Positions 4,107 through 27,614 of a stretch of DNA of 32,000 bases are shown in pieces (position 1 is the stretch's first letter; each line of letters starts with the position of its first letter). A program made the position numbers and the translations under genes. Under the pieces are notes generated by a model. It did no database searches and had not been told where the DNA came from. It saw only the letters and a list, made by a program, of their open reading frames with translations. Source of the DNA: an uncultured Chloroflexia bacterium (GTDB taxonomy: Bacteria; Chloroflexota; Ktedonobacteria; Ktedonobacterales; JADMIN01); the NCBI GenBank assembly GCA_963718915.1, contig CAVRAI010000003.1, positions 150,001 through 182,000 of the forward strand, given 5' to 3'.

Positions 4107-4228
4107 GTGAGTCCCAGGGTTGCTCACTGACATTGCAATCTACACACGCCCGCTGTTGCTATGAAGAGTCTGGAATATTGTGTGTAGTCCCGTGCGGATT
4201 ATCCGACGAGAAACGGGGATAACTGCTC

Positions 4229-4252
4229 GCCTCTCTGCCCGCCTCTCTGCCC
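4229..4252. repeat. Tandem 12-mer (GCCTCTCTGCCC) x2
   Basis: Read directly in the non-coding gap. Confidence 0.9.
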
Positions 4253-5079
4253 GGTTCCACCTCCTCACGATCACCGTTGATCGTCCCCACCGTGCCGCCC
4301 ACAACCGATCTTTGAGTACGCAAGACGCCGACCCTGCCTGGTGAGAGGTTCACATGGCGCCCGACAAGGCATTCCATTGTGATGAGTAGTCTGATCCAGA
4401 CAAAAGCAGGGAGCGTCCTCCAATCCTTTTTGACGACGATGGTTACATGAGCCCACTGCTCTGCTCTTGATAATAACAACGTGCGCTCATTGCGTGAAGT
4501 CACCCCTGACTTATCACACGTAAGCACGCGCAAGGCATATCGGTTCACCACATATTACGCATTGCGACCGACCTCTTGCCAGACGCCCGCTCATACTTTA
4601 TTATGGTAGGTAGTAGGTAGATGTTCTGCTACATCCTGCGGAAACGATGCTACAGGATAGCTTGTAACCTGCGTGCGTATCCTAACCTTGTAGCGCATCG
4701 CTCACCGGAGAAAGGAGGCGGAGCAGGAACAGCGACGTTCCTTAGATTTGAGCCGACTTTCGATGGGTGTGATGAGGTTGGGATCGGGTGGAGCGTTCTG
4801 TCGGCATTTCCTCTGGCGCGTATGTCGCGCGCCGCGCACAAGCCCCGTCTCCTGCTGTCCGCACTACAATCGCGGGCAGACAAACCCTCTCATCATGGTC
4901 AAGAAGAATTGGCATTGCCTCCACGCATCACCTTCGTGTCAGCGTCATTGGATTAACGCACGTACGCATGTAGATGCTGGTCTTCACTCTATTGCCATAA
5001 ATTCCCGCATGCGACGTGTTTGGACAGGGAGTGCCTGCGATGCTCGATCTTCCAGAGCATCGCGTACAGGAGGTATGGT

Positions 5080-7136: not shown

Positions 7137-7376
7137 TCAGGCTGCGACCGCCGAGGCCCGCCGCCATTCGTAGCGCGCCGCCAGGCCCAGCGCAATCGCC
7201 ACCACCGCCAGCCCGCCAACCATAAACCACTCCAGCGAACCACTGCCCTGATCGGGGTCAACGCGGAAAACTGTCTCGATCCATTCCTGATTGATGAGCG
7301 TCACCACAAACATGACGCCAGCGATAAGTCCCAGGATGGCCTCAAGATAGAACCACAGTCGCAGGCCCTTCTTCAT
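7137..7376 (-). CDS. Small (79-aa) two-TM membrane protein, unknown function
   Basis: ATG at 7376 with GGAGG 8 nt upstream. It has two hydrophobic segments (LWFYLEAILGLIAGVMFVVTLI and WFMVGGLAVVAIALGLAA) and lies between a hairpin and a divergent promoter region. Confidence 0.65.
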   Translation of the reverse strand: MKKGLRLWFYLEAILGLIAGVMFVVTLINQEWIETVFRVDPDQGSGSLEWFMVGGLAVVAIALGLAARYEWRRASAVAA

Positions 7377-7511: not shown

Positions 7512-7542
7512 TTGACCTTCCAGTTACGGGAAGGTGTACGCT
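7512..7542 (+). promoter_or_regulatory. MerR-type promoter with CueR-box dyad
   Basis: TTGACC (7512-7517), then a 19-nt spacer, then TACGCT (7537-7542). The long spacer is the MerR-family hallmark. Within it is a perfect dyad ACCTTCC (7515-7521)-N7-GGAAGGT (7529-7535). As far as I recall this equals the CueR box of E. coli PcopA. It lies 42 nt upstream of the MerR gene ATG. Confidence 0.7.
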
Positions 7543-7583
7543 GTTGGCAGTAAGAGGCAAGGCGGACCGGACAGGGGGAAACC

Positions 7584-8114
7584 ATGCAAACGAACAGCAG
7601 CGGCGACCGACAGCGTGTCAATGCCAAGGGGCCAGGCGAGGCAACGCTCACCATCGGGCAGATTGCCCAGCGAACGGGCGTCGCGGCCAAGACCATCCGC
7701 TTCTACGAAGAGATTGGCCTCTTGCCACAGCCACCGCGCGGACCGAATAGCTACCGCCGTTATCGTCTTGCCGATCTCAATCGCCTGCTGTTGCTCCGGC
7801 GCATTCGCCTGCTCGGTTTGCCTCTTTCGTCGGCGAAACCCCTGCTCATTGGCGCGTCCGACGCACAATGCGGCGACGTCCAGCGGCAGTTGCTCTCGCT
7901 GGTTGAGCAGCGGCTGCGCGCGATTGACCAGGAGATTGCCGAACTGCACTCGCTACGGGAGACGGTCGCGGGCTATCAGCGCGCGCTCTCGGCCTGCCCA
8001 CCCGCCGACGATTCCACATTCAGCGATTGTTCCGATATGCGTTGCATCGCCCCATCCGACGATGCCGCACTCGAGGAGGCGTGCCATGATGAAACCGACT
8101 CTTGTTGCCCGTAA
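7584..8114 (+). CDS. MerR-family metal-sensing transcriptional regulator, CueR/HmrR-like
   Basis: 176-aa ORF. N-terminal MerR HTH (LTIGQIAQRTGVAAKTIRFYEEIGLLPQP...YRRY), a coiled-coil dimerisation helix, then a Cys loop ACPPADDSTFSDC resembling the CueR loop CPGDDSADC. The tail carries additional Cys residues (RC...ACHDETDSCCP). Confidence 0.9.
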   Translation: MQTNSSGDRQRVNAKGPGEATLTIGQIAQRTGVAAKTIRFYEEIGLLPQPPRGPNSYRRYRLADLNRLLLLRRIRLLGLPLSSAKPLLIGASDAQCGDVQRQLLSLVEQRLRAIDQEIAELHSLRETVAGYQRALSACPPADDSTFSDCSDMRCIAPSDDAALEEACHDETDSCCP

Positions 8115-8202
8115 CCTCAGCGCTGCCTGTGATGCCTGTGATTGTCCGCCGGGCGAGTGTCCCTGCGGCCCAGAGTGTTGCAGCGGAACGGGCTGCTGTT
8201 AG
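8086..8202 (+). CDS. 38-aa cysteine-rich micropeptide (metallothionein-like candidate)
   Basis: It is the last 38 codons of the shadow ORF 7534..8202. ATG at 8086 is preceded by GAGGAGG (8073-8079, 6-nt spacer). Product: MMKPTLVARNLSAACDACDCPPGECPCGPECCSGTGCC, with 9 Cys in the final 24 residues. It overlaps the MerR 3' end by 29 nt in another frame and is followed by a hairpin terminator. Confidence 0.55.
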   Translation: MMKPTLVARNLSAACDACDCPPGECPCGPECCSGTGCC

Positions 8203-8224
8203 GCGCATCCTTCCCCACAACACG

Positions 8225-8258
8225 ACGCCTCTTCCTCTAATGGGAAGGGGCGTTTCTC
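8225..8258 (+). terminator. Intrinsic-terminator-like hairpin after the micropeptide ORF
   Basis: ACGCCTCTTCC (8225-8235) pairs with GGAAGGGGCGT (8243-8253) with one G-T wobble and a 7-nt loop, followed by TTCTC. It could also serve the convergent HxlR gene. Confidence 0.55.
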
Positions 8259-8280
8259 ATGAGTGTTCAACAGACTTCGA

Positions 8281-8664
8281 TTATGCCGATGTCTCTTCCA
8301 GACGCGCCCGATCCGCGCGTTCGCGCCGCAGCGCCACCAGCTGCGCCATGTAGTCGTCGCCCCAGTCGCGCATGAGCAGCAGAATCGGTTCGAGCGACGC
8401 GCCAAATGTCGTCAGCGAATACTCCACCCTGGGCGGCACCTCACGATAGACCTCACGGTGAATGATGCCCGCCTCTTCCAGTTCGCGCAGTTGCAAGGTC
8501 AGCATGCGCTGGGTCACCTCCGGCAGCAGGCGCCGTAATTCCCCAAACCGCTTGACGCCATCCAGCAGATGAAACAGGATAACGCCCTTCCATTTTCCGC
8601 CGATCACGTCGAGCGTTGCTTCAACCGAGCAGCTATATTTGCCCTCGTAGTGACGTCGCTTCAT
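8281..8664 (-). CDS. HxlR-family winged-helix transcriptional regulator
   Basis: I prefer the ATG at 8664 (GGAGG with an 8-nt spacer) over the track GTG at 8679, which overlaps that RBS. The sequence is typical HxlR: [72 protein letters not shown]. Confidence 0.9.
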
Positions 8665-8861
8665 GACAAATACCTCCACAATAGTTTCATTTTCGATACT
8701 ATGTCACATTATTGTGTGTACTTGCGAAATTAATGATGAAAGAGCATAGTTGTTGAAGAGGATGCTGACGCCTGTTGGAGACTCGTAGCGCTGAACACCA
8801 GAGGATTATGCTTCGCCAAGAGGCCGTATGCGATAGAAAGCAGTGAAGAGGTCTTTTACCC

Positions 8862-9797
8862 ATGGCACAGATGCATGCTGTTCGCCTGCACCAGTATGGC
8901 GCGGCAGAGAATTTGATGTACGAAGAGACGCAACGTCCCGAGCCACAGGCTGGCGAAGTGCTGGTGCGCGTCCGCGCCGCTGGCGTCAACCCGGTTGACT
9001 GGAAGACACGCACCGGGCATGGTGTCGCTGGCCCGCTGGAGTCGCCGATCATCCTGGGCTGGGATATCGCTGGCGTGGTCGAGGAGGTAGGCAGCGGGGT
9101 TGACCAGTTTACCGCTGGCGATGAAGTCTTCGGGATGGTGCGCTTTCCAGAGTTCGGCAGCGCCTATGCCGACTATGTGGCCGCTCCCGCCAGCGATCTC
9201 GCGAGGAAGCCGACGAATAGCTCGTTTGCCGAAGCGGCCGCGGCGCCTCTGGTAGCTCTCACCGCCTGGCAGGCGCTCTTTAAGACGGCGCGACTCCAGG
9301 CTGGCCAGACGCTCCTTGTGCATGCCGCGGCGGGTGGCGTTGGCCATATCGCCGTCCAGCTCGCGAAGTGGAAGGGCGCGCAGGTCATTGGCACAGCCTC
9401 GGCGCAGAACGCGGATTTTCTGCGCAGTCTCGGCGCTGACCAGGTGATCGACTATACCCACGAGCGCTTCGAGGATGTTGCGCGCGAGGTCGATGTCGTG
9501 CTGGATACGCAAGGCGGCGCGACGCAGAAACGGTCGTTCGCCACGCTCAAGCCGGGTGGGGCGCTCGTCTCGATTGCGGAGACGCCCGACGAGGCGCTCG
9601 CACAGCGCTACGGCGTGCGCACGGCGCGTATTCGTGTCCGTCCCAGCGGCGAGCAGATGGCGGAGATCGCCCAACTCTTCGAGAGCGGAAATGTCCGTGT
9701 GGAGGTCGCGCGCACGTTTCCACTGGCTGAAGCAGCTGAGGCGCATCGTCTGAGCGAAACCGGCCACACGCGCGGCAAAATCCTGCTGATCCCGTAG
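8862..9797 (+). CDS. NADPH:quinone oxidoreductase-like medium-chain dehydrogenase/reductase
   Basis: 311-aa ORF divergent from the HxlR gene, which is a common pairing. It has the MDR pattern GEVLVRVRAAGVNPVDWKTRTG and the nucleotide-binding LVHAAAGGVGHIAVQLAK. Confidence 0.9.
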   Translation: MAQMHAVRLHQYGAAENLMYEETQRPEPQAGEVLVRVRAAGVNPVDWKTRTGHGVAGPLESPIILGWDIAGVVEEVGSGVDQFTAGDEVFGMVRFPEFGSAYADYVAAPASDLARKPTNSSFAEAAAAPLVALTAWQALFKTARLQAGQTLLVHAAAGGVGHIAVQLAKWKGAQVIGTASAQNADFLRSLGADQVIDYTHERFEDVAREVDVVLDTQGGATQKRSFATLKPGGALVSIAETPDEALAQRYGVRTARIRVRPSGEQMAEIAQLFESGNVRVEVARTFPLAEAAEAHRLSETGHTRGKILLIP

Positions 9798-13911: not shown

Positions 13912-13965
13912 GTGGCCCTCCAGGCTCTGGTCAATGGTCAGCGGATACGTATCGCCTGAGCGCAA

Positions 13966-13994
13966 TAGTAGTTCATTTAGTTTGTTCAGTCAAG
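13966..13994 (-). promoter_or_regulatory. Sigma70-like promoter for the regulator/ABC operon
   Basis: On the minus strand: TTGACT (13994-13989), a 17-nt spacer, then TACTAT (13971-13966). It sits about 55 nt upstream of the ATG at 13911. The spacer contains a direct TGAAC...TGAAC. Confidence 0.45.
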
Positions 13995-14068
13995 ACTGAA
14001 ACATCAGACTTTCGACCTAGCTGCAATTGATACGCAATCCGTTTGGGGTGTTGTAGTAAGAAGGCGCG

Positions 14069-14545
14069 CCGTAGTGTGATGAACGTTCACGTATTCCTCC
14101 GAACACCGCGCGTTGTGGCGGGCGAGACAGGCCGGAGCGTGATGTCGTTTTCGCATTTGCGACGGAGACGGGCATTGCGGTGGGGCGAGCAAGCCGGAGC
14201 GTTCACGCTCCGGCGAATGGGCCTGGGAGGTGGAAAATTCGCCGGAGCATGATGTAGTTTTACTAATTACAACGGACCGCCACGGCGGCGGGCGACTGAA
14301 GTCGCGCCTGAAGGGCCTCGCCTGCTGCGCCTGCTGCGCCTGCTGCGCACGCTCCGCCACAAAACCCGCCTGCGCGGGGTGCCCAGAACCGCTCGCCAGC
14401 GGGTCGCTCGTCGGGACACGATCTGGGAAGTCCGCGACGGCGGACTTCGTGGCCGCAGGCCCTTCAGGCGCGGTTTGAACCGCCCGCGCTGCCCAGCGCG
14501 TGTCCCTGGTAAATTCTAAAACTACATTATGCTCCGGCGCGCGCC
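14069..14545. repeat. Intergenic nested-hairpin repeat element, copy A
   Basis: Repeated half-arms GCCG(G/T)AG(C/T)(G/A)T(G/A)ATG start at 14069, 14131 and 14241. Hairpin GCCGGAGCG-TTCA-CGCTCCGGC at 14193-14214. Hairpin GGCGAAT/ATTCGCC at 14212-14243. A 23-bp long-range inverted repeat joins 14240-14262 to 14517-14539 (one G-T). A 14-bp inverted repeat joins 14304-14317 to 14458-14471. A 9-bp hairpin lies at 14427-14448. (GCCTGCTGC) x3 lies at 14320-14346. Confidence 0.8.
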
Positions 14546-14599
14546 CCTCAGCAGACTGCTGGCGCTATCTGTATGCGCGACGCTAGGCTATCCCTTCTG

Positions 14600-15694
14600 T
14601 CATGCATCCGCTCCATCGAAGGGAACCACCTGGCTGCTGGCGGCGCTCTCGCGGGCCGCCTCGATCACGCGGATCGTCTTCAGCGCGTCGCGAGGGTCCA
14701 CGGGTAGTGGGCCGCCCGCCCGTATGGCATCGCGCACCATTTGATAGAACGTCTCATAGCTTCCTGGCAGCGACTGTGCCACCGCGGCGACCGAGACCGC
14801 GCCGATGTCGGTATAGAGGCGGCCCCAGATGCTTTCCGGCTCCTCCGCCCAGCCCTCGTCGCCAGGCCGACCACCCGTGCGCAACATATCCTCCTGGGTG
14901 TCCAGGCCAAATTTTTCATAGAAGCCACGGCTGCCAATGACGCGGTAGCGGGGACCAAGCTGGCGCACCAGCACGCTCATCCAGAGGTGAGCAACGCTGC
15001 CGTTGGCGAAGCGCAGCGCGACGAACGTATCGTCGTCTACCTGGGCGCCGGGACGCCGCGCATCCACCTCCGCATAGACCGAGACAGGGTCACCCAGCAG
15101 CACCAGCGCCTGGTCGACCAGGTGCGCGCCGAGATCGAAGAGCAGACCGCCCGCCTCCTGTGGCGCCGCGTGCTCGCGCCAGGCAGCCGCATTCACCGTC
15201 GGGCGATAACGCTCGTAGCGGCTCTCGAAGCGCACGATATCGCCCAACGCGCCCGCCGACTTCAACGCCTGAAGCGTGCGAAAATCGCTATCCCAGCGGC
15301 GATTCTGGAAGACCGTCAGCGGCGCATTCGCCGCCGTGGCCGCCGCGATCAACTGGCGCGCGTCGGCGCTGGTGGAGGTGAATGGCTTATCGACGACGAC
15401 GGGCAATCCCGCCTGGATGGCGGCCATGCCGAGCGCGAGATGGCTATCATTCGGCGTCGCCACCACCACCAGATCAACCGCCGTGGGATCGGCAAAGAGC
15501 GCATCCGCTGTGGGTAGCACGCGCGCCGTGGGATAGTCGCGCTGCGCCCGCGCCTGGCGCTCGGGGTTAGAGGTGACGATCACCGCAACCTCCATCCCAG
15601 CGACTGAGGCAATCAGTGGCGCGTGGAAGACAGAGCCGGCAAGCCCATAGCCCAGGACTGCCGCCCGGATCGGCGATTGTTGTGAGGATGACAC
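14600..15694 (-). CDS. Gfo/Idh/MocA-family NAD(P)-dependent oxidoreductase
   Basis: 364-aa ORF with a GTG start. N-terminal Rossmann segment IRAAVLGYGLAGSVFHAPL and a typical family length. It is the last gene of the sugar-transport operon. Confidence 0.9.
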   Translation of the reverse strand: MSSSQQSPIRAAVLGYGLAGSVFHAPLIASVAGMEVAVIVTSNPERQARAQRDYPTARVLPTADALFADPTAVDLVVVATPNDSHLALGMAAIQAGLPVVVDKPFTSTSADARQLIAAATAANAPLTVFQNRRWDSDFRTLQALKSAGALGDIVRFESRYERYRPTVNAAAWREHAAPQEAGGLLFDLGAHLVDQALVLLGDPVSVYAEVDARRPGAQVDDDTFVALRFANGSVAHLWMSVLVRQLGPRYRVIGSRGFYEKFGLDTQEDMLRTGGRPGDEGWAEEPESIWGRLYTDIGAVSVAAVAQSLPGSYETFYQMVRDAIRAGGPLPVDPRDALKTIRVIEAARESAASSQVVPFDGADA

Positions 15695-22930: not shown

Positions 22931-23380
22931 CAGGGGAGCAGGCTGGCGGCGGTTGTTGGCGCGTGAGCATCGCAACTCGCAAGTGGGGTAGCGCAAACAC
23001 ACGTTGTCTGGTATACTTGGCGCATAGCTTCTATGCGAATGCCGCCCCTGTTGGCGCAGGAACGGCACTCTGGCCCGCAACGCTACCATTACCTAGCGTG
23101 GGGTTGCCCGTATCTTACCCCACGCGCCTGTCTCGAAACGAGAGGCGCACGACATGATCTCCACCTTTTTCCTCTTTTTCCATCCGCATGCACATCTCTT
23201 CACTGTGCGCTCGCAGTTCGCAAACGCCGTGATCCGCCCATGTACGGGCAATCATGAACACCCCGTAGCGCGTCCAGCGTAGTGTGTTTGTATATCCGTC
23301 TAGCCAGCTTTCAGTCAATGGGTTTCCATTATGGAAGGCCCCCTTGGACATGCGATGAAATGAGGAATTGGAGAGGTTTC

Positions 23381-24238
23381 ATGAACAACGATGATACACA
23401 AGCGCAAGAAATGCAGGCCATAACACCAACACGGCAAGAAGTAGTTCCCCTTTTTGATCGCTTGATTGTCGCGGTATCCCTCCCCGACGGGCGTATTGCT
23501 GCGACATTGGCAAGTTTGTGTGACGCATTGGGACTTACTCAGCCCAGTCAATCGCGCCGCATTCGTGCTGATGAGGTGCTGGCTGATGAATTGCTCTCCG
23601 TGGCCATTGAAACGAGTAGTGGTGTTCAGACAATGGGCGCATTGACCGCCTGGGCGATTCCCTTGTGGCTGACTGGCGTCCATGTCACTCGTCTGGCAGA
23701 GTCAAAACGTGCGGCGATTCTGGCCTTCAAGAAACAGGCGGCGAATGTGCTCTATGAGCATTTCTCGCAGTTGACGCTCCCGCCACCACCACCGACGACG
23801 CTCGTTCCCGCTGAGCCGATAGAGAAGCCGAGCTATCCTGACGATTCGGCAACCATGGATGAGCGGCGGAAGTATCACCGCGACATGGTGACGTGGCTCG
23901 ACTGGCAGGCCGATGTTGCCGCATGGCAGCGCGACACGAACAATCGGCTCGATGGCCTGGAGAGCGAGGTGGAATCGCTGCATGAAGTGGTGCGGCTCGT
24001 GCCTGAGTTGTTGGAGCGGATGGGGCCAGCGACACTGAGTCCTGAGCATCAGCATAGTGTCCAGGCGCTAGCGAAGCGGCTGCACGAGGTGGGCGGCTTC
24101 GGCTTTGCCACCATCTACAGCGAACTTAATGCCGCATTCCACGTCGGCAAATACGACCAGATCAGCGATACATCATGGGAAGATGTTGCCCACTGGTTTG
24201 CCACGCGCATCAACGCGGCGGAGCGGCGACGTAGATAG
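23381..24238 (+). CDS. Phage antirepressor-like protein (P22_AR N-terminal domain plus ORF6C-like C-terminal domain)
   Basis: ATG at 23381 with GGAGAGG upstream. The N-terminus VVPLFDRLIVAVSLPDGRIAATLASLCDALGLTQPSQSRRIRADEVLADELL...AIPLWLTGVHVTRLAESKRAAILAFKKQAANVLYEHF fits my recollection of the P22_AR_N pattern. The C-terminus HSVQALAKRLHEVGGFGFATIYSELNAAFHVGKYDQISDTSWEDVAHWF resembles ORF6C. Local GC is about 53% by hand count. Confidence 0.75.
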   Translation: MNNDDTQAQEMQAITPTRQEVVPLFDRLIVAVSLPDGRIAATLASLCDALGLTQPSQSRRIRADEVLADELLSVAIETSSGVQTMGALTAWAIPLWLTGVHVTRLAESKRAAILAFKKQAANVLYEHFSQLTLPPPPPTTLVPAEPIEKPSYPDDSATMDERRKYHRDMVTWLDWQADVAAWQRDTNNRLDGLESEVESLHEVVRLVPELLERMGPATLSPEHQHSVQALAKRLHEVGGFGFATIYSELNAAFHVGKYDQISDTSWEDVAHWFATRINAAERRRR

Positions 24239-24819: not shown

Positions 24820-26223
24820 CTATTCTCCCGCAATCGAGAGCGCGCCGAAGCGGATGGACATCGGGCCGTAGTACGCGCCATCGCTGAAGATATCGGCGGA
24901 GAGGCGCGCATCCTGGAAGGCCGTGAAGACGTTGCCGGAGAGCGATCCGCCCTTGATGGGATGGACGCCGGACGCATCGTGACGATAGCCCAGCCGAATC
25001 TCGGCCACGAAATCGCCCGTTATCGGGTCGGGCAGCATCAGCGAGAACGAGACAATCTCATAGACCGGGCCATCCGCCACCGACCGCAGATCCGCCAGCC
25101 GCCAGCCGCCGGGCGCTATCGAAAGCCCCGCGAAGTCACCGGTCGGCGCCGCTTCGCCGAGCCAGGCCGCCGAACGCATATCCGTCCAGTAGCGACGCAG
25201 CACGCCCTCCTCGACCAGCGGCACGCTCGTCGCCGGAACGCCGTCTTTATCGAATGGCGCGGTGTTGTTGCCCCACGGTCGTAGCGCATCGGCCCGCACC
25301 GTCAGCCGGTCGCCACGCGGCTCTTCGCTGGTGATGAAGTCGCCGGGGGCGCAGCGCGCCAGCTTCTGGAAAGCGGCCTGCCCAGATGTCTGGAAGGCAA
25401 CAGGCGCGAAGAACCCCGCAAAGCCGCCAAGCGAGGGCGCCGACGAAGAACCCAGCGCATCACCACTGAGGATCACCGGACCACTATGCGTCGCCGGGGG
25501 AGTCGCGCGCAAGACATCGCGGGCATAGGTGGCATAGGCGGCAATCGTGCGGGCAAGCTGGAGGTCAGCCAGCCGTCGGCGCGAGAGCATTGCGTGAAAC
25601 TCCGCCTCCTGGTCACCGGCCCGCGCCAGCAACGCCAGATCAAGCGAAGCATGCGTGCCGCCATACGCGCCGGAGAGGCCGCGACTGTTGCGGAACGCAG
25701 TGGAGGAATGCGTCGCATAGAGTTCGGCGCTGCTCAGGCGCACATCGGGCTGCGCGGCAACCGCCTGCTCCAGCTCGGCGCGGATAGCTTCGAGCGCGCC
25801 AGGAAGGTCGCGCGCCAACTCGTCATCGTCGATGCGCGTCTCGGGGAAACCACCAGCGGGCATCGTCGGCAGCGCAAAGGGCGGATTATCGATCAGTCGC
25901 GCCATCGCCACGCCATCCGCCAGCCGGGAAGCCAGTCGCGCGGGATCGGCCAGCTCACCGCCAGAAAGCGTGACCGCCGTCGAGCCGCGCGCCGGGCTGG
26001 CATCCTCGCCGCTGGCCGGTGGATGATCGCTGTAGAGCACGGCCTGCGCCTGGGCGCTGTTCACCTGCCGCAGCGCCTCGAGGCGCGTCCCGATGAGGTA
26101 CATCTGCGCCTCGTCGTCGCGCCGCACCGCACACTGCCAGTCATCGGCCCCCGGTGTCGCCGCCAGCGCCTCAACCAGTTGCTCTGGAACCCCCGCCGCA
26201 TTCGTCACCGCCTGGGATGTCAT
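24820..26223 (-). CDS. pmbA: PmbA/TldE-family metalloprotease partner subunit
   Basis: The product is about 467 aa. The start (ATG 26223 or TTG 26226) overlaps the tldD stop within TTGATGA. Its length and position immediately downstream of tldD fit the family, and it lacks an HExxxH of its own, as expected for TldE. Confidence 0.8.
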   Translation of the reverse strand: MTSQAVTNAAGVPEQLVEALAATPGADDWQCAVRRDDEAQMYLIGTRLEALRQVNSAQAQAVLYSDHPPASGEDASPARGSTAVTLSGGELADPARLASRLADGVAMARLIDNPPFALPTMPAGGFPETRIDDDELARDLPGALEAIRAELEQAVAAQPDVRLSSAELYATHSSTAFRNSRGLSGAYGGTHASLDLALLARAGDQEAEFHAMLSRRRLADLQLARTIAAYATYARDVLRATPPATHSGPVILSGDALGSSSAPSLGGFAGFFAPVAFQTSGQAAFQKLARCAPGDFITSEEPRGDRLTVRADALRPWGNNTAPFDKDGVPATSVPLVEEGVLRRYWTDMRSAAWLGEAAPTGDFAGLSIAPGGWRLADLRSVADGPVYEIVSFSLMLPDPITGDFVAEIRLGYRHDASGVHPIKGGSLSGNVFTAFQDARLSADIFSDGAYYGPMSIRFGALSIAGE

Positions 26224-27614
26224 CAACCGAGCCTCGCTTTCATACGCAGATGTGGACCGCCAGACGCCACCGGCACCATCTCCTTATGTCCCTTGCCACA
26301 GGTGCCGGGAGATAACTCAAAATCGTTGCCAATGACCGAGATGCTCTGCAGCAGGTCAGGCACATAGCCAGTGATGCCGACGGGCGCGAAGAGCCGTCCG
26401 GTGAGCGCGCCGTTGACGATCTCCTCGCCGTAATGCGCCGTCACCTGAATGCCCCAGCCAGCCGGATCCTCCATCCCGCTCTCCGCCATCCGCAGGTAGA
26501 TGCCGCGCTCGACGCCCGCGATCATCTCCGCCGCGTCGCTCGCGCCCGGCGCGAAAAATGTGTTGCTCATGCGCGCATATGCCTTGCGTGTGTAGTCCTG
26601 GCGGCGGCCATTAGCCGTGTGGATGCCCGGCGCGAAGGTGGCCGAGGAGAAATCGCTGATGGGCCGCACGAGCACGCCATCGCGCAGAATCTGCGTCGGA
26701 CGCGCCAGCTCGCCCTCGTCGTCGAAGAAGTAGGAGCCGTAGCCGCCGACGACGCTCGGATCGTCGTACATCTGCACGCTGGGCGCGGCCACCTGGCGGT
26801 CGAGATACTGCGCCGCGAGCGCCCGGCCCTTGGGGAAGAGGTCAAGCTCGACGCCATGGCCGAAACATTCATGCGCGATGACGCCGGAGACGCTGGGATC
26901 GCTGACGACGTCGTACTCGCCTGGCGTGATCTTCTCGGCGTCCAGCAGCCGCAGGGCAATCTCCGCCGTCTGCGCCAGTTCATCTTGCGGGATGTCGGCC
27001 ACCTCATAGCCGCCCGTGCCGCCGCGGATCGCGAAGTGGTAGCGCATCTGCTGCCCATCGGAGACGGCAATCACCACCAACAGGCGCATCCGCGTCACAT
27101 GCTGTTCCAGCCGTCGTCCGCGCCCAATGTAGACGCGCTCCTCGTTGGTATCGGCGTATTGAACCTGCGCCTGCACCACCCGCTGATCCAGCGCCCGGCC
27201 ACGCGCGCCCAGATCGCGCACCAGCGCCAGCTTCTCGCTGAGGGGAACGGTCGCGGGATCGCGCGCGCTCTCGGTCTGGAAGCGCCGCCAGTCATTCCCA
27301 GCGATGGTCGAGTAGCCTGCGCCGCTCATCACCGGGCCGCCGGAACGCGGGCGCACTGTCGCCGCCCAGCCGCGCACCTCATGGGCAAGCGCGTCGGGGA
27401 TGAGCGTGCTGGTGGCGTACTCGACGAAGCCACGGCCATCATAGACGGTGAAGACGATACCCTGCGTCGGGGGAACTTCGTTGGCGCGCTGCTCCCTGCC
27501 CGTATCGGTAATTTGAACGCCAGACTGGCCACTCAGCAGGGCAGCCGCATAGGGGAATCGGGGTTCCAGGTCGGCAACCAGATCCTGCACAACCCGGTAG
27601 AGCGCATCGTCCAT
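26223..27614 (-). CDS. tldD: TldD-family zinc metalloprotease
   Basis: 463-aa ORF with GAGGAGG upstream. The HExxxH motif is present in VIAHECFGHGVELD, and the overall TldD length fits. Confidence 0.9.
   Translation of the reverse strand: MDDALYRVVQDLVADLEPRFPYAAALLSGQSGVQITDTGREQRANEVPPTQGIVFTVYDGRGFVEYATSTLIPDALAHEVRGWAATVRPRSGGPVMSGAGYSTIAGNDWRRFQTESARDPATVPLSEKLALVRDLGARGRALDQRVVQAQVQYADTNEERVYIGRGRRLEQHVTRMRLLVVIAVSDGQQMRYHFAIRGGTGGYEVADIPQDELAQTAEIALRLLDAEKITPGEYDVVSDPSVSGVIAHECFGHGVELDLFPKGRALAAQYLDRQVAAPSVQMYDDPSVVGGYGSYFFDDEGELARPTQILRDGVLVRPISDFSSATFAPGIHTANGRRQDYTRKAYARMSNTFFAPGASDAAEMIAGVERGIYLRMAESGMEDPAGWGIQVTAHYGEEIVNGALTGRLFAPVGITGYVPDLLQSISVIGNDFELSPGTCGKGHKEMVPVASGGPHLRMKARLG

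Follow-up and report, generated by a model that had tools for sequence, protein, structure and literature searches.

Whether a very short, cysteine-rich open reading frame (ORF) behind a metal-type regulator gene is a gene at all, and what such a gene might be for, is the question raised by a locus in a 32,000-nucleotide (nt) stretch of DNA from an uncultured soil member of the Ktedonobacterales (Chloroflexota). The whole of this stretch, which is GC-rich (61%), was analysed and is called the window below. It holds a MerR-family regulator gene (merR) under a promoter of the CueR type and, overlapping the 3' end of merR, a small ORF (sORF) for a peptide of 38 amino acids (aa). A preliminary description, made from the letters of the window, had read the two as an autoregulated sensor coupled to a thiolate-rich micropeptide, with no transporter gene attached. 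The pair was found to be conserved as a module in relatives, and we consider it rather likely that it is an auto-activated sensor-plus-sink operon encoding a single-cluster metallothionein-like peptide.

Anatomy of the merR-sORF unit

The features of the unit are listed in Table 1. The product of the sORF, MMKPTLVARNLSAACDACDCPPGECPCGPECCSGTGCC, contains all nine of its cysteines within residues 15-38, and is shortened to 37 aa if translation begins at the ATG at 8089. Cysteine makes up 24% of the peptide, there is no aromatic residue, and CxxC, CxC and CC motifs are all present, a composition that agrees with an operational definition of a metallothionein (small, cysteine-rich, with CxC/CC/CxxC motifs and few aromatics). 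The sORF lies in the +1 frame relative to merR, which it overlaps by 29 nt, and this frame, an off-frame of merR, stays open over 222 codons (7534-8202, +). The peptide was reported by no gene caller. The promoter with its perfect dyad, the overlapping 38-aa ORF with a GAGGAGG ribosome binding site (RBS) and the closing hairpin with its T-rich tract (TTTCTCAT) had all been put forward in the preliminary description, and all were recovered at the positions given for them.

Conservation of the small ORF and selection on its product

A total of 166 loci encoding relatives of the regulator were gathered from genome and metagenome collections, and the area around each regulator stop codon was scanned. 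Loci were regarded as assessable if the regulator was at least 50% identical to that of the window and the sequence ran past its stop, which left 32. The merR-plus-sORF arrangement, whose recurrence in related genomes had been raised as a point to look for, was found in 29 of the 32 (MerR identity 50-88%), in the form of a short ORF with 7-10 cysteines at the 3' end of merR; one of the three loci without a full sORF (L100) has a degenerate regulator gene. The peptide ORF was carried by two more distant loci, L012 (regulator 46% identical) and L022 (47%), and was absent from ~125 loci with more distant MerR/CueR homologues, these being mostly alphaproteobacterial CueR/HmrR-type genes. Segments with at least seven cysteines in 25 aa were present at the merR 3' end in 15 of 15 related loci, with four others elsewhere (six frames, 127.6 kb); comparable cysteine-rich frames were ~100 times rarer elsewhere in the same loci.

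The sORF starts with ATG nearly everywhere, and with GTG in the L006-L008 subclade. AGGAGG, AGGAG or AAGGAG was found a few nt upstream of the start in nearly all of the 28 related loci, together with a few weaker matches of 4-5 nt. This Shine-Dalgarno (SD) sequence is kept at the nucleotide level despite differences in the MerR residues (EE, KE or QE) at the same place. The sORF may begin as far as 46 nt beyond the merR stop (L005) or overlap the regulator gene by as much as 95 nt (L009), and this variable position marks it as an independent cistron and not a frameshift tail. Programmed frameshifting, which would yield a MerR protein with a cysteine-rich tail, was considered and ruled out, because the sORF lies 14-46 nt past the merR stop in some loci and is almost always equipped with an SD and a start of its own, and because no in-frame fusion of regulator and peptide was seen among longer homologues. 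Without exception, the reading frame ends right behind the last cysteine cluster.

Substitutions were expressed as Nei-Gojobori proportions over the part of the sORF outside the merR overlap. The median synonymous proportion (pS) was 0.88 and the median nonsynonymous proportion (pN) was 0.23, with pN below pS in 274 of 276 pairs; the alignments were protein-guided, the sequences are short and of low complexity and the pairs are non-independent, so the reliable comparisons are those between close relatives. The window compared with L001-L003 gave a pN of 0.07-0.09 and a pS of 0.38-0.51. In three groups of relatives, codon positions 1, 2 and 3 differed 8/10/37, 0/2/23 and 63/53/325 times; both TGC and TGT were used in the invariant cysteine columns, as is seen with synonymous turnover. 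A 6-nt in-frame indel separates the window sORF from its closest relatives, in which the frame is conserved and the cysteines are kept. These data indicate that the peptide is under purifying selection at the protein level, and that the sORF is a real and conserved gene.

The peptide family

Members of the peptide family are 17-43 aa in length and consist of 31% Cys, 14% Gly and 11% Pro. They share the core (E/D)-x-C-(D/E)-C-P-(C/P)-G-(E/Q)-C-P-C-(G/D)-C-G-C-C, which points to homology beyond mere likeness of composition. Aromatic residues are confined to the short N-terminal parts, and none is found in the cysteine-rich core. In most members 2-9 residues precede the first cysteine (e.g. MTECPCPC and MQQYEPCDC), compared with 14 in the window peptide. 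A 25-residue member encoded by a relative has the sequence MNTAQHEPCDCPCGTCPCGCGCCGC, and the shortest member, 17 aa (MTECPCPCGTCPCECCG), is encoded at L022, which comes from an uncultured member of the Chloroflexi. At L012 (4700-5580) the peptide is of 28/29 aa, MMLYPTLDEALEPCPCGCGCPCGCGCCDC, and is followed by a weak hairpin.

A larger arrangement was noticed in another Chloroflexota lineage, in which a MerR homologue (36-42% identity; L135 (1495-2207), L017 and L136) is followed by an overlapping ORF of ~80-104 aa. The product has three CGCGC-type clusters, ...DCGCGCGCSS...DCGCGCGGDSCGS...DCGCGCCSSAE, and may be a larger relative or an analogue of the micropeptide.

The window peptide and 23 family members gave no match to Pfam or NCBIfam at E <= 10, in scans whose sensitivity may be lowered by the composition filters of HMMER, and a profile of the family matched no PDB chain at E <= 10, in agreement with the unrelated sequence that the preliminary description had proposed. 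Exact-sequence look-up returned nothing for the window peptide, and a word-index search with a 46-aa version beginning at an upstream ATG was likewise empty. A phmmer search of 1.84 billion representative proteins returned three matches, namely one genuine homologue (P0125), one mis-called off-frame ORF (P0123) and one unrelated protein. P0125 is a 41-aa 'hypothetical protein' from JGI, the gene for which overlaps a merR fragment by 29 nt, as it does in the window. A family-profile search of 5.8 billion proteins added only the L010 peptide and one mis-extended call. The peptide had been described as untracked by annotation, and properly called members of the family indeed number two among these 5.8 billion public proteins; the members are too short and so are missed by gene callers. 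P0123 is a merR off-frame of a relative that ends in the peptide and was called as a 261-aa 'protein', and P0127 is a mis-extended call of 70 aa; both are annotation artefacts which mask the true micropeptide. Full-text literature searches turned up nothing on a bacterial metallothionein linked to MerR or CueR in Chloroflexota or Ktedonobacteria.

The promoter and operator

The 19-nt spacer of the window promoter contains the dyad ACCTTCC (7515-7521), N7, GGAAGGT (7529-7535), and such a palindromic operator inside an over-long spacer (19-20 nt) is characteristic of the MerR family. The box had been assigned to the CueR type in the preliminary description, and the assignment was correct. The copA promoter of E. 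coli K-12, taken from the RefSeq record, is TTGACCTTCCccttgctGGAAGGTttaacct; it shares with the window promoter the -35 (TTGACC), the two arms, the length of the centre (7 nt) and that of the spacer (19 nt), with the arms in the same position relative to the -35. Even when 2 mismatches were allowed, the dyad had no second match in the 32-kb window, the expectation from shuffled sequence being 0.04.

The box in relatives, TTGACCTTCC-N7-GGAA(G/C)GT-(G/C)-TAnnnT, was present in 26 of the 27 sORF loci having upstream sequence. The -35 and the arms are invariant across these box-bearing loci except at one arm base (24 G, 2 C), and the central 7 nt vary freely. Arms that are kept around a variable centre are the footprint expected of a dimeric operator. 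The sole exception is L012, where no recognisable CueR-type box was found within 300 nt upstream; this locus may be rearranged.

Two copies of the box were found at L022, one at 4955-4978 before merR and one at 4217-4240, ~740 nt further upstream, which may mark an additional member of the regulon. The same box is also found upstream of other MerR clades without an sORF. L150 (1448-2200), L125, L129, L131, L151 and L154 have a different MerR clade, preceded by the box in its exact form, TTGACCTTCC-N7-GGAAGGT; the N-terminal half shows 46-49% identity, and there is no cysteine at the position of Cys96 of the window regulator. The MerR gene of L150 is followed by an ORF bearing the motif AHPDDAEFGAGG, an AHPDD motif of the kind typical of LmbE/PIG-L deacetylases (low-molecular-weight-thiol biosynthesis).

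The MerR-family regulator

The regulator matched the Pfam families MerR (E = 1e-16), MerR_1 (E = 2e-14) and MerR-DNA-bind (E = 1e-6), and has a winged helix-turn-helix of the MerR type at its N-terminus. Candidate ligand residues are Cys96, Cys138, Cys149, Cys154 and a Cys-Cys pair near the C-terminus, the last of which is comparable to the CCHHRAG tail of CueR (PMC9542689). Cys138 and Cys149 belong to the loop ACPPADDSTFSDC (residues 137-149). Among 20 homologues in which conservation was counted, Cys96 and Cys149 were invariant, and Cys138 and Cys154 were present in at least 90%.

The top match in the PDB, both by sequence and by fold, was E. coli CueR (37% identity; 1q05 and 1q06), followed by CadR, PbrR and MerR; NmlR and SoxR were among the weaker matches. 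The HMMER alignment places Cys138 and Cys149 on C112 and C120 of CueR, and Cys96 on S77 of CueR and C79 of Bacillus MerR. An AlphaFold (AF2) monomer model with a mean pLDDT of 77 predicts one long helix (96-136) with Cys96 at its start and Cys138 just past its end, corresponding, as far as a monomer model goes, to the long dimerisation helix with flanking ligand cysteines found in the family. Scores against the NCBIfam models were 73 bits for CueR, 70 for MerR, 67 for CadR/PbrR and 66 for ZntR.

The conserved unit and its neighbourhood

The hairpin behind the sORF, which sits between the operon and a convergent HxlR-type gene, has a minimum free energy of -21.6 kcal/mol (z = -2.1) and gave a weak 5-bp match in a generic terminator scan. 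Nearly all related loci have a GC-rich hairpin (-16 to -36 kcal/mol) after the sORF stop, and a T7 tract is present in several.

Pfam scans of the larger ORFs of the window identified neither a transporter for copper or another metal nor such a chaperone or oxidase. The preliminary description had remarked on the lack of copA, copZ and a multicopper oxidase in the window, and none of the three was found there or beside the module in relatives. An upstream 646-aa protein, a divergent 79-aa membrane protein and a downstream pair of HxlR and quinone oxidoreductase genes are common to only the three closest loci; the membrane protein and the HxlR/oxidoreductase pair were considered as parts of the module and rejected on these grounds. 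The more distant loci have unrelated neighbours (MraZ, DinB, RtcB, luciferase-like, M3 peptidase, Band 7, HD and others). A conserved cargo gene in the flanks (ATPase, CDF transporter, oxidase or chaperone) was likewise sought and rejected, the neighbours being unrelated between lineages. As the flanking genes differ between loci, the module comprises merR and the sORF only. The conserved unit is the promoter, merR, the sORF with its SD and start, and the hairpin, and nothing else; no partner gene is conserved with it.

Three other features of the window were noted. A protein with a P22 antirepressor N-terminal domain is possibly a prophage remnant, and two TldD/PmbA-like metallopeptidase genes are arranged in tandem; by distance, and with no conservation, these are unrelated to the module. 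The only other strongly cysteine-rich frame of the window lies in the intergenic region 13965-14600 and arises from a 9-nt tandem repeat, GCCTGCTGC, present in 3-4 copies at ~14320-14350. The region also has two similar segments of ~40 nt (GCCGGAGCGTGATGTCGTTTT... and GCCGGAGCATGATGTAGTTTT...), and the frame looks like a non-coding repeat and not a gene.

Table 1. Features of the merR-sORF unit and of its surroundings (positions are those of the window)
Feature	Position	Strand	Remarks
MerR-type promoter/operator	7512-7542	+	TTGACC -35 (7512-7517), 19-nt spacer, TACGCT -10 (7537-7542)
MerR-family metal-sensor gene (merR)	7584-8114	+	176 aa; Pfam MerR, MerR_1, MerR-DNA-bind
Shine-Dalgarno GAGGAGG of the small ORF	8073-8079	+	within Glu-Glu codons of merR, 6 nt before ATG
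Small ORF, metallothionein-like	8086-8202	+	38 aa, 9 Cys; TAG stop 8200-8202
Probable intrinsic terminator	8224-8262	+	13-bp hairpin 8224-8254, then TTTCTCAT
79-aa membrane protein	7137-7376	-	
HxlR-type regulator	8281-8679	-	convergent with the operon
PIG3/quinone-oxidoreductase-family gene	8862-9797	+	divergent from the HxlR-type gene
Cys-rich frame in intergenic region	14143-14475	+	looks like a non-coding repeat
Protein with P22 antirepressor N-terminal domain	23282-24235	+	possibly a prophage remnant
Tandem TldD/PmbA-like metallopeptidase genes	24823-27614	-	

A proposed sensor-plus-sink operon

The observations can be combined into the following scheme. A dimer of the regulator, which appears CueR-like in its fold, DNA-binding region and operator, would sit on the dyad in the over-long spacer of its own promoter. 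The ligands of a thiophilic metal would be Cys138 and Cys149 from one subunit and probably Cys96 from its partner. Remodelling of spacer DNA by a metal-loaded dimer is the established mechanism of MerR regulators, and by untwisting and shortening the spacer the loaded regulator would bring about transcription of a bicistronic mRNA, with positive autoregulation as a consequence. The second cistron would be translated independently from its own strong RBS into a peptide of 37-38 residues, whose nine cysteines (CxxC, CxC and CC) may wrap a single metal-thiolate cluster and so form a minimal metallothionein; the 8-10 cysteines in ~22 residues would fit one cluster domain, M(II)3S9 or Cu(I)4-6. The peptide would then buffer the inducing metal in the cytosol, and the lower concentration of free metal would feed back on the sensor and turn the switch down.

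Several observations weigh against this scheme. L095 carries a shorter version of the peptide with five cysteines, and L093 has the box and the regulator and no sORF, and the caution given above for the distant pairs in the substitution analysis applies here too. There is no detectable homology to known metallothionein families in Pfam, NCBIfam or the PDB, MymT having been compared by description only, and the designation as a metallothionein accordingly depends on the composition and motifs of the peptide and on its genetic context. Induction by metal, translation of the peptide, its binding of metal and the identity of that metal are all inferred.

The regulator itself gives further grounds for caution. 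It is a metal-type MerR protein outside every characterised equivalog, with scores below all trusted cut-offs (143-151 bits); for CueR the values were 73.1 against 147.4 bits with TIGR02044 and 62.9 against 244 with PRK10227. Cys96 and Cys138 are 42 residues apart, compared with 35 for S77 and C112 of CueR, and 35 is also the distance from the S77/C79 position to the loop cysteine in MerR, ZntR and CadR. The dimerisation helix would thus be one heptad longer, and an extra heptad would be expected to keep both ends of an antiparallel coiled coil juxtaposed. The loop is C-x10-C, three residues longer than the C112-x7-C120 of CueR, although both cysteines align. The serine of CueR at position 77 is replaced by cysteine in 20 of 20 homologues. 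Ser77 of CueR/GolS is described as excluding +2 ions, and S77C as conferring a +2 response in addition (PMC9733647, citing Ibanez 2015 and Cerminati 2015). These deviations from CueR in the Ser77 position, the loop and the helix mean that the inducer is possibly a metal other than copper, or conceivably an oxidant or an electrophile.

The earlier description of the regulator as a copper-type sensor with a CueR-like loop therefore stands in part. The operator and the fold match those of CueR, and both loop cysteines have their counterparts; the near-equal scores below cut-off, the cysteine in place of Ser77 and the spacing of the loop do not agree with it. The operator and the closest structure suggest Cu(I), Ag or Au as the inducer, and Cys96 suggests a broader or divalent range (Cd, Zn, Hg and Pb). 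A CueR box combined with this cysteine would give CueR-type DNA specificity with a ligand set like that of Hg/Zn/Cd/Pb sensors. The invariant Cys96, the longer helix and the longer loop argue against a strictly Cu(I)-specific sensor, and within the sensor-plus-sink scheme the chances of a monovalent (Cu/Ag/Au) and of a broader or divalent specificity are roughly even.

Alternative explanations

The peptide may mainly be a regulatory or metal-exchange partner of the sensor, stripping metal from it or delivering metal to it and so resetting or tuning the MerR switch. CopZ acting on CopY and TipAS titrating the inducer of TipAL are precedents. Nothing but the regulator is conserved alongside the peptide, their genes vary together from clade to clade, and in most loci the two reading frames adjoin or overlap; positive autoregulation also needs a brake, and no exporter is linked. 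The additional conserved cysteines of the regulator (C154 and the C-terminal CC) could take part in thiolate ligand exchange. However, evidence for an interaction is contextual, natural regulator-peptide fusions were not found, and the strong SD suggests that more peptide than regulator is produced, as would suit a sink. Sequestration would also reset the sensor, so the two functions overlap and are inseparable in silico. We regard exchange as the main function of the peptide as rather unlikely.

It is distinctly unlikely that the module answers thiol-reactive stress (oxidants, electrophiles or quinones), with the cysteines of the regulator being oxidised or alkylated and the peptide serving as a sacrificial thiol buffer. 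Some members of the MerR family do sense redox changes or electrophiles, NmlR and SoxR are among the weaker matches, and an HxlR-type regulator and a quinone oxidoreductase are encoded next door in the window and its closest relatives. The AHPDD-motif ORF behind a MerR gene of another CueR-box clade, with its possible tie to thiol biosynthesis, would also fit such a role. Those neighbours, however, are kept only in the three closest loci, and three conserved cysteines of the regulator are exactly at the metal-ligand positions of CueR, MerR and CadR. The operator is a CueR box, the best matches by sequence and fold are metal sensors, and CxC and CC motifs with Gly and Pro are typical of metal-thiolate clusters.

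A third reading, that the peptide is the precursor of a ribosomally synthesised and post-translationally modified peptide (RiPP), for example a thio(amide/ether) metallophore derived from cysteine, with the genes for its maturation enzymes at another site, had been listed as an alternative in the preliminary description and is very unlikely. Ktedonobacteria are rich in RiPP clusters, the peptide is small and cysteine-rich with 14 residues before its first cysteine in the window, and the TldD/PmbA-like peptidase pair lies 17 kb away. Yet co-located genes for maturation, export or immunity and a recognisable leader were found in none of the lineages viewed: no modifying enzyme, transporter or protease gene is conserved beside the module, whose neighbours vary by locus, the leaders of mostly 2-9 residues (at most 14) are too short for recognition, and the unit is closed by a hairpin and encodes no signal peptide or export signal.

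Finally, an untranslated chance frame, formed by the merR off-frame and the 3' flank, was a reasonable doubt given the 222 open codons across merR, the long spurious ORFs that GC-rich genomes yield and the silence of the gene callers, but it is essentially excluded by comparative evidence, as the preliminary description had anticipated: ~30 loci, down to 46% regulator identity, conserve an sORF with its own SD and start and a stop always right after the cysteine cluster, the substitutions show a third-position excess, pN far below pS and in-frame indels, and comparable cysteine-rich frames are ~100 times rarer elsewhere in these loci.

The sensor-plus-sink reading may be carried further, as a speculative and rather doubtful extension. 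The module could be a closed two-component metal homeostat of the Ktedonobacterales for which no transporter is needed, the peptides could be an overlooked family of the shortest known bacterial metallothioneins (17-43 aa, one thiolate cluster), and each would be paired with a hybrid sensor (CueR-type operator with a cysteine at the +2 position) and would act both as a sink and as a direct ligand-exchange partner that resets the sensor.

Comparison with known systems

By analogy, the closest functional precedents appear to be MymT, SmtA/SmtB and CadR-Zrd, with TipAL/TipAS as the precedent for the logic of the circuit. From CueR of E. coli, to which operator and regulator are most alike, the system differs beyond the ligand set in that merR is driven by its own activatable promoter, and in that a micropeptide takes the place of a P-type ATPase or oxidase as the cargo.

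The Cu(I) metallothionein of mycobacteria, MymT, is ~53 aa in length, is controlled by the CsoR-type copper repressor RicR and not by a MerR activator, and is not known to be co-transcribed with its sensor. At 4.9 kDa it is larger than the peptides described here, which are of 17-43 aa. Like them it is small, cytosolic and cysteine-rich and was first missed by annotation (PMC7558416, PMC11672702), having originally been an unannotated sORF (PMC7558416). MymT is up-regulated for metal resistance, and several Cu(I) ions have been proposed to lie in one thiolate core (PMC7558416, PMC11672702).

In the cyanobacterial and pseudomonad SmtA/BmtA-SmtB systems for Zn and Cd, the metallothionein gene also adjoins that of its own sensor, and the output is sequestration and not efflux (PMC7558416, PMC7387436). 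SmtA differs from the new peptides in being ~55 aa in length with a zinc-finger fold and His ligands, and in being under an ArsR-family repressor from which it is divergently transcribed. The Pfam SmtA model was matched by no member of the new family. In P. aeruginosa CadR activates Zrd, a small, cysteine-rich, metallothionein-like protein for which sequestration of Zn and Cd has been proposed (PMC12301328), and here too a metal-sensing activator of the MerR family switches on a small cysteine-rich protein. Zrd, however, is a zinc-ribbon in which the two Cys4 sites are mononuclear; it does not share a transcript with its regulator and has another type of operator.

In the TipAL/TipAS system of Streptomyces a MerR-type promoter activates the gene of its own regulator, and a small, abundant product of the transcript titrates the inducer. 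A minimal sensor and sink with positive autoregulation is common to both systems, but the ligand of TipA is a thiopeptide antibiotic, and TipAS is an in-frame C-terminal isoform and not a separate cistron. The copper metallothionein of Neurospora and the beta-domain of mammalian metallothioneins have 7-9 cysteines in 25-30 residues, with CxC, CC and CxxC motifs, Gly-rich spacers and no aromatics, and a single domain of this kind suffices for one M(II)3S9 or Cu(I)6 cluster. The new peptides match these single-domain eukaryotic proteins in length and cysteine number; there is no homology, and the Pro-rich CPCG/CDCP repeats, the bacterial origin and the MerR control are specific to the new family.

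Implications

What is new here, in an understudied phylum, is a metallothionein-like family and an atypical CueR-like sensor in an auto-activated bicistron; these are of kinds already known and are not categorically new. Few bacterial metallothioneins have been established, the reviews listing SmtA/BmtA and MymT and naming Csp, CopZ and CutC as further sinks for copper in the cytosol, and this scarcity is a long-standing puzzle (PMC7558416, PMC11672702). The combination of a CueR operator with a cysteine for Ser77 and a helix longer by one heptad is a natural experiment on metal selectivity in the MerR family. The sensor-plus-sink bicistron, ~700 bp in length, is compact and portable and could serve in metal biosensing or sequestration, and the peptides are easily synthesised chemically, which makes the hypothesis directly testable.

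If the reading of a sensor and a sink is correct, the peptides would constitute a new bacterial metallothionein family unrelated in sequence to the others. If the larger cysteine-cluster ORF of the second Chloroflexota lineage is related or analogous, a MerR regulator with a Cys-cluster protein would be a wider theme in the phylum. That two called members were found in 5.8 billion proteins suggests that metallothionein-like micropeptides may be systematically overlooked.

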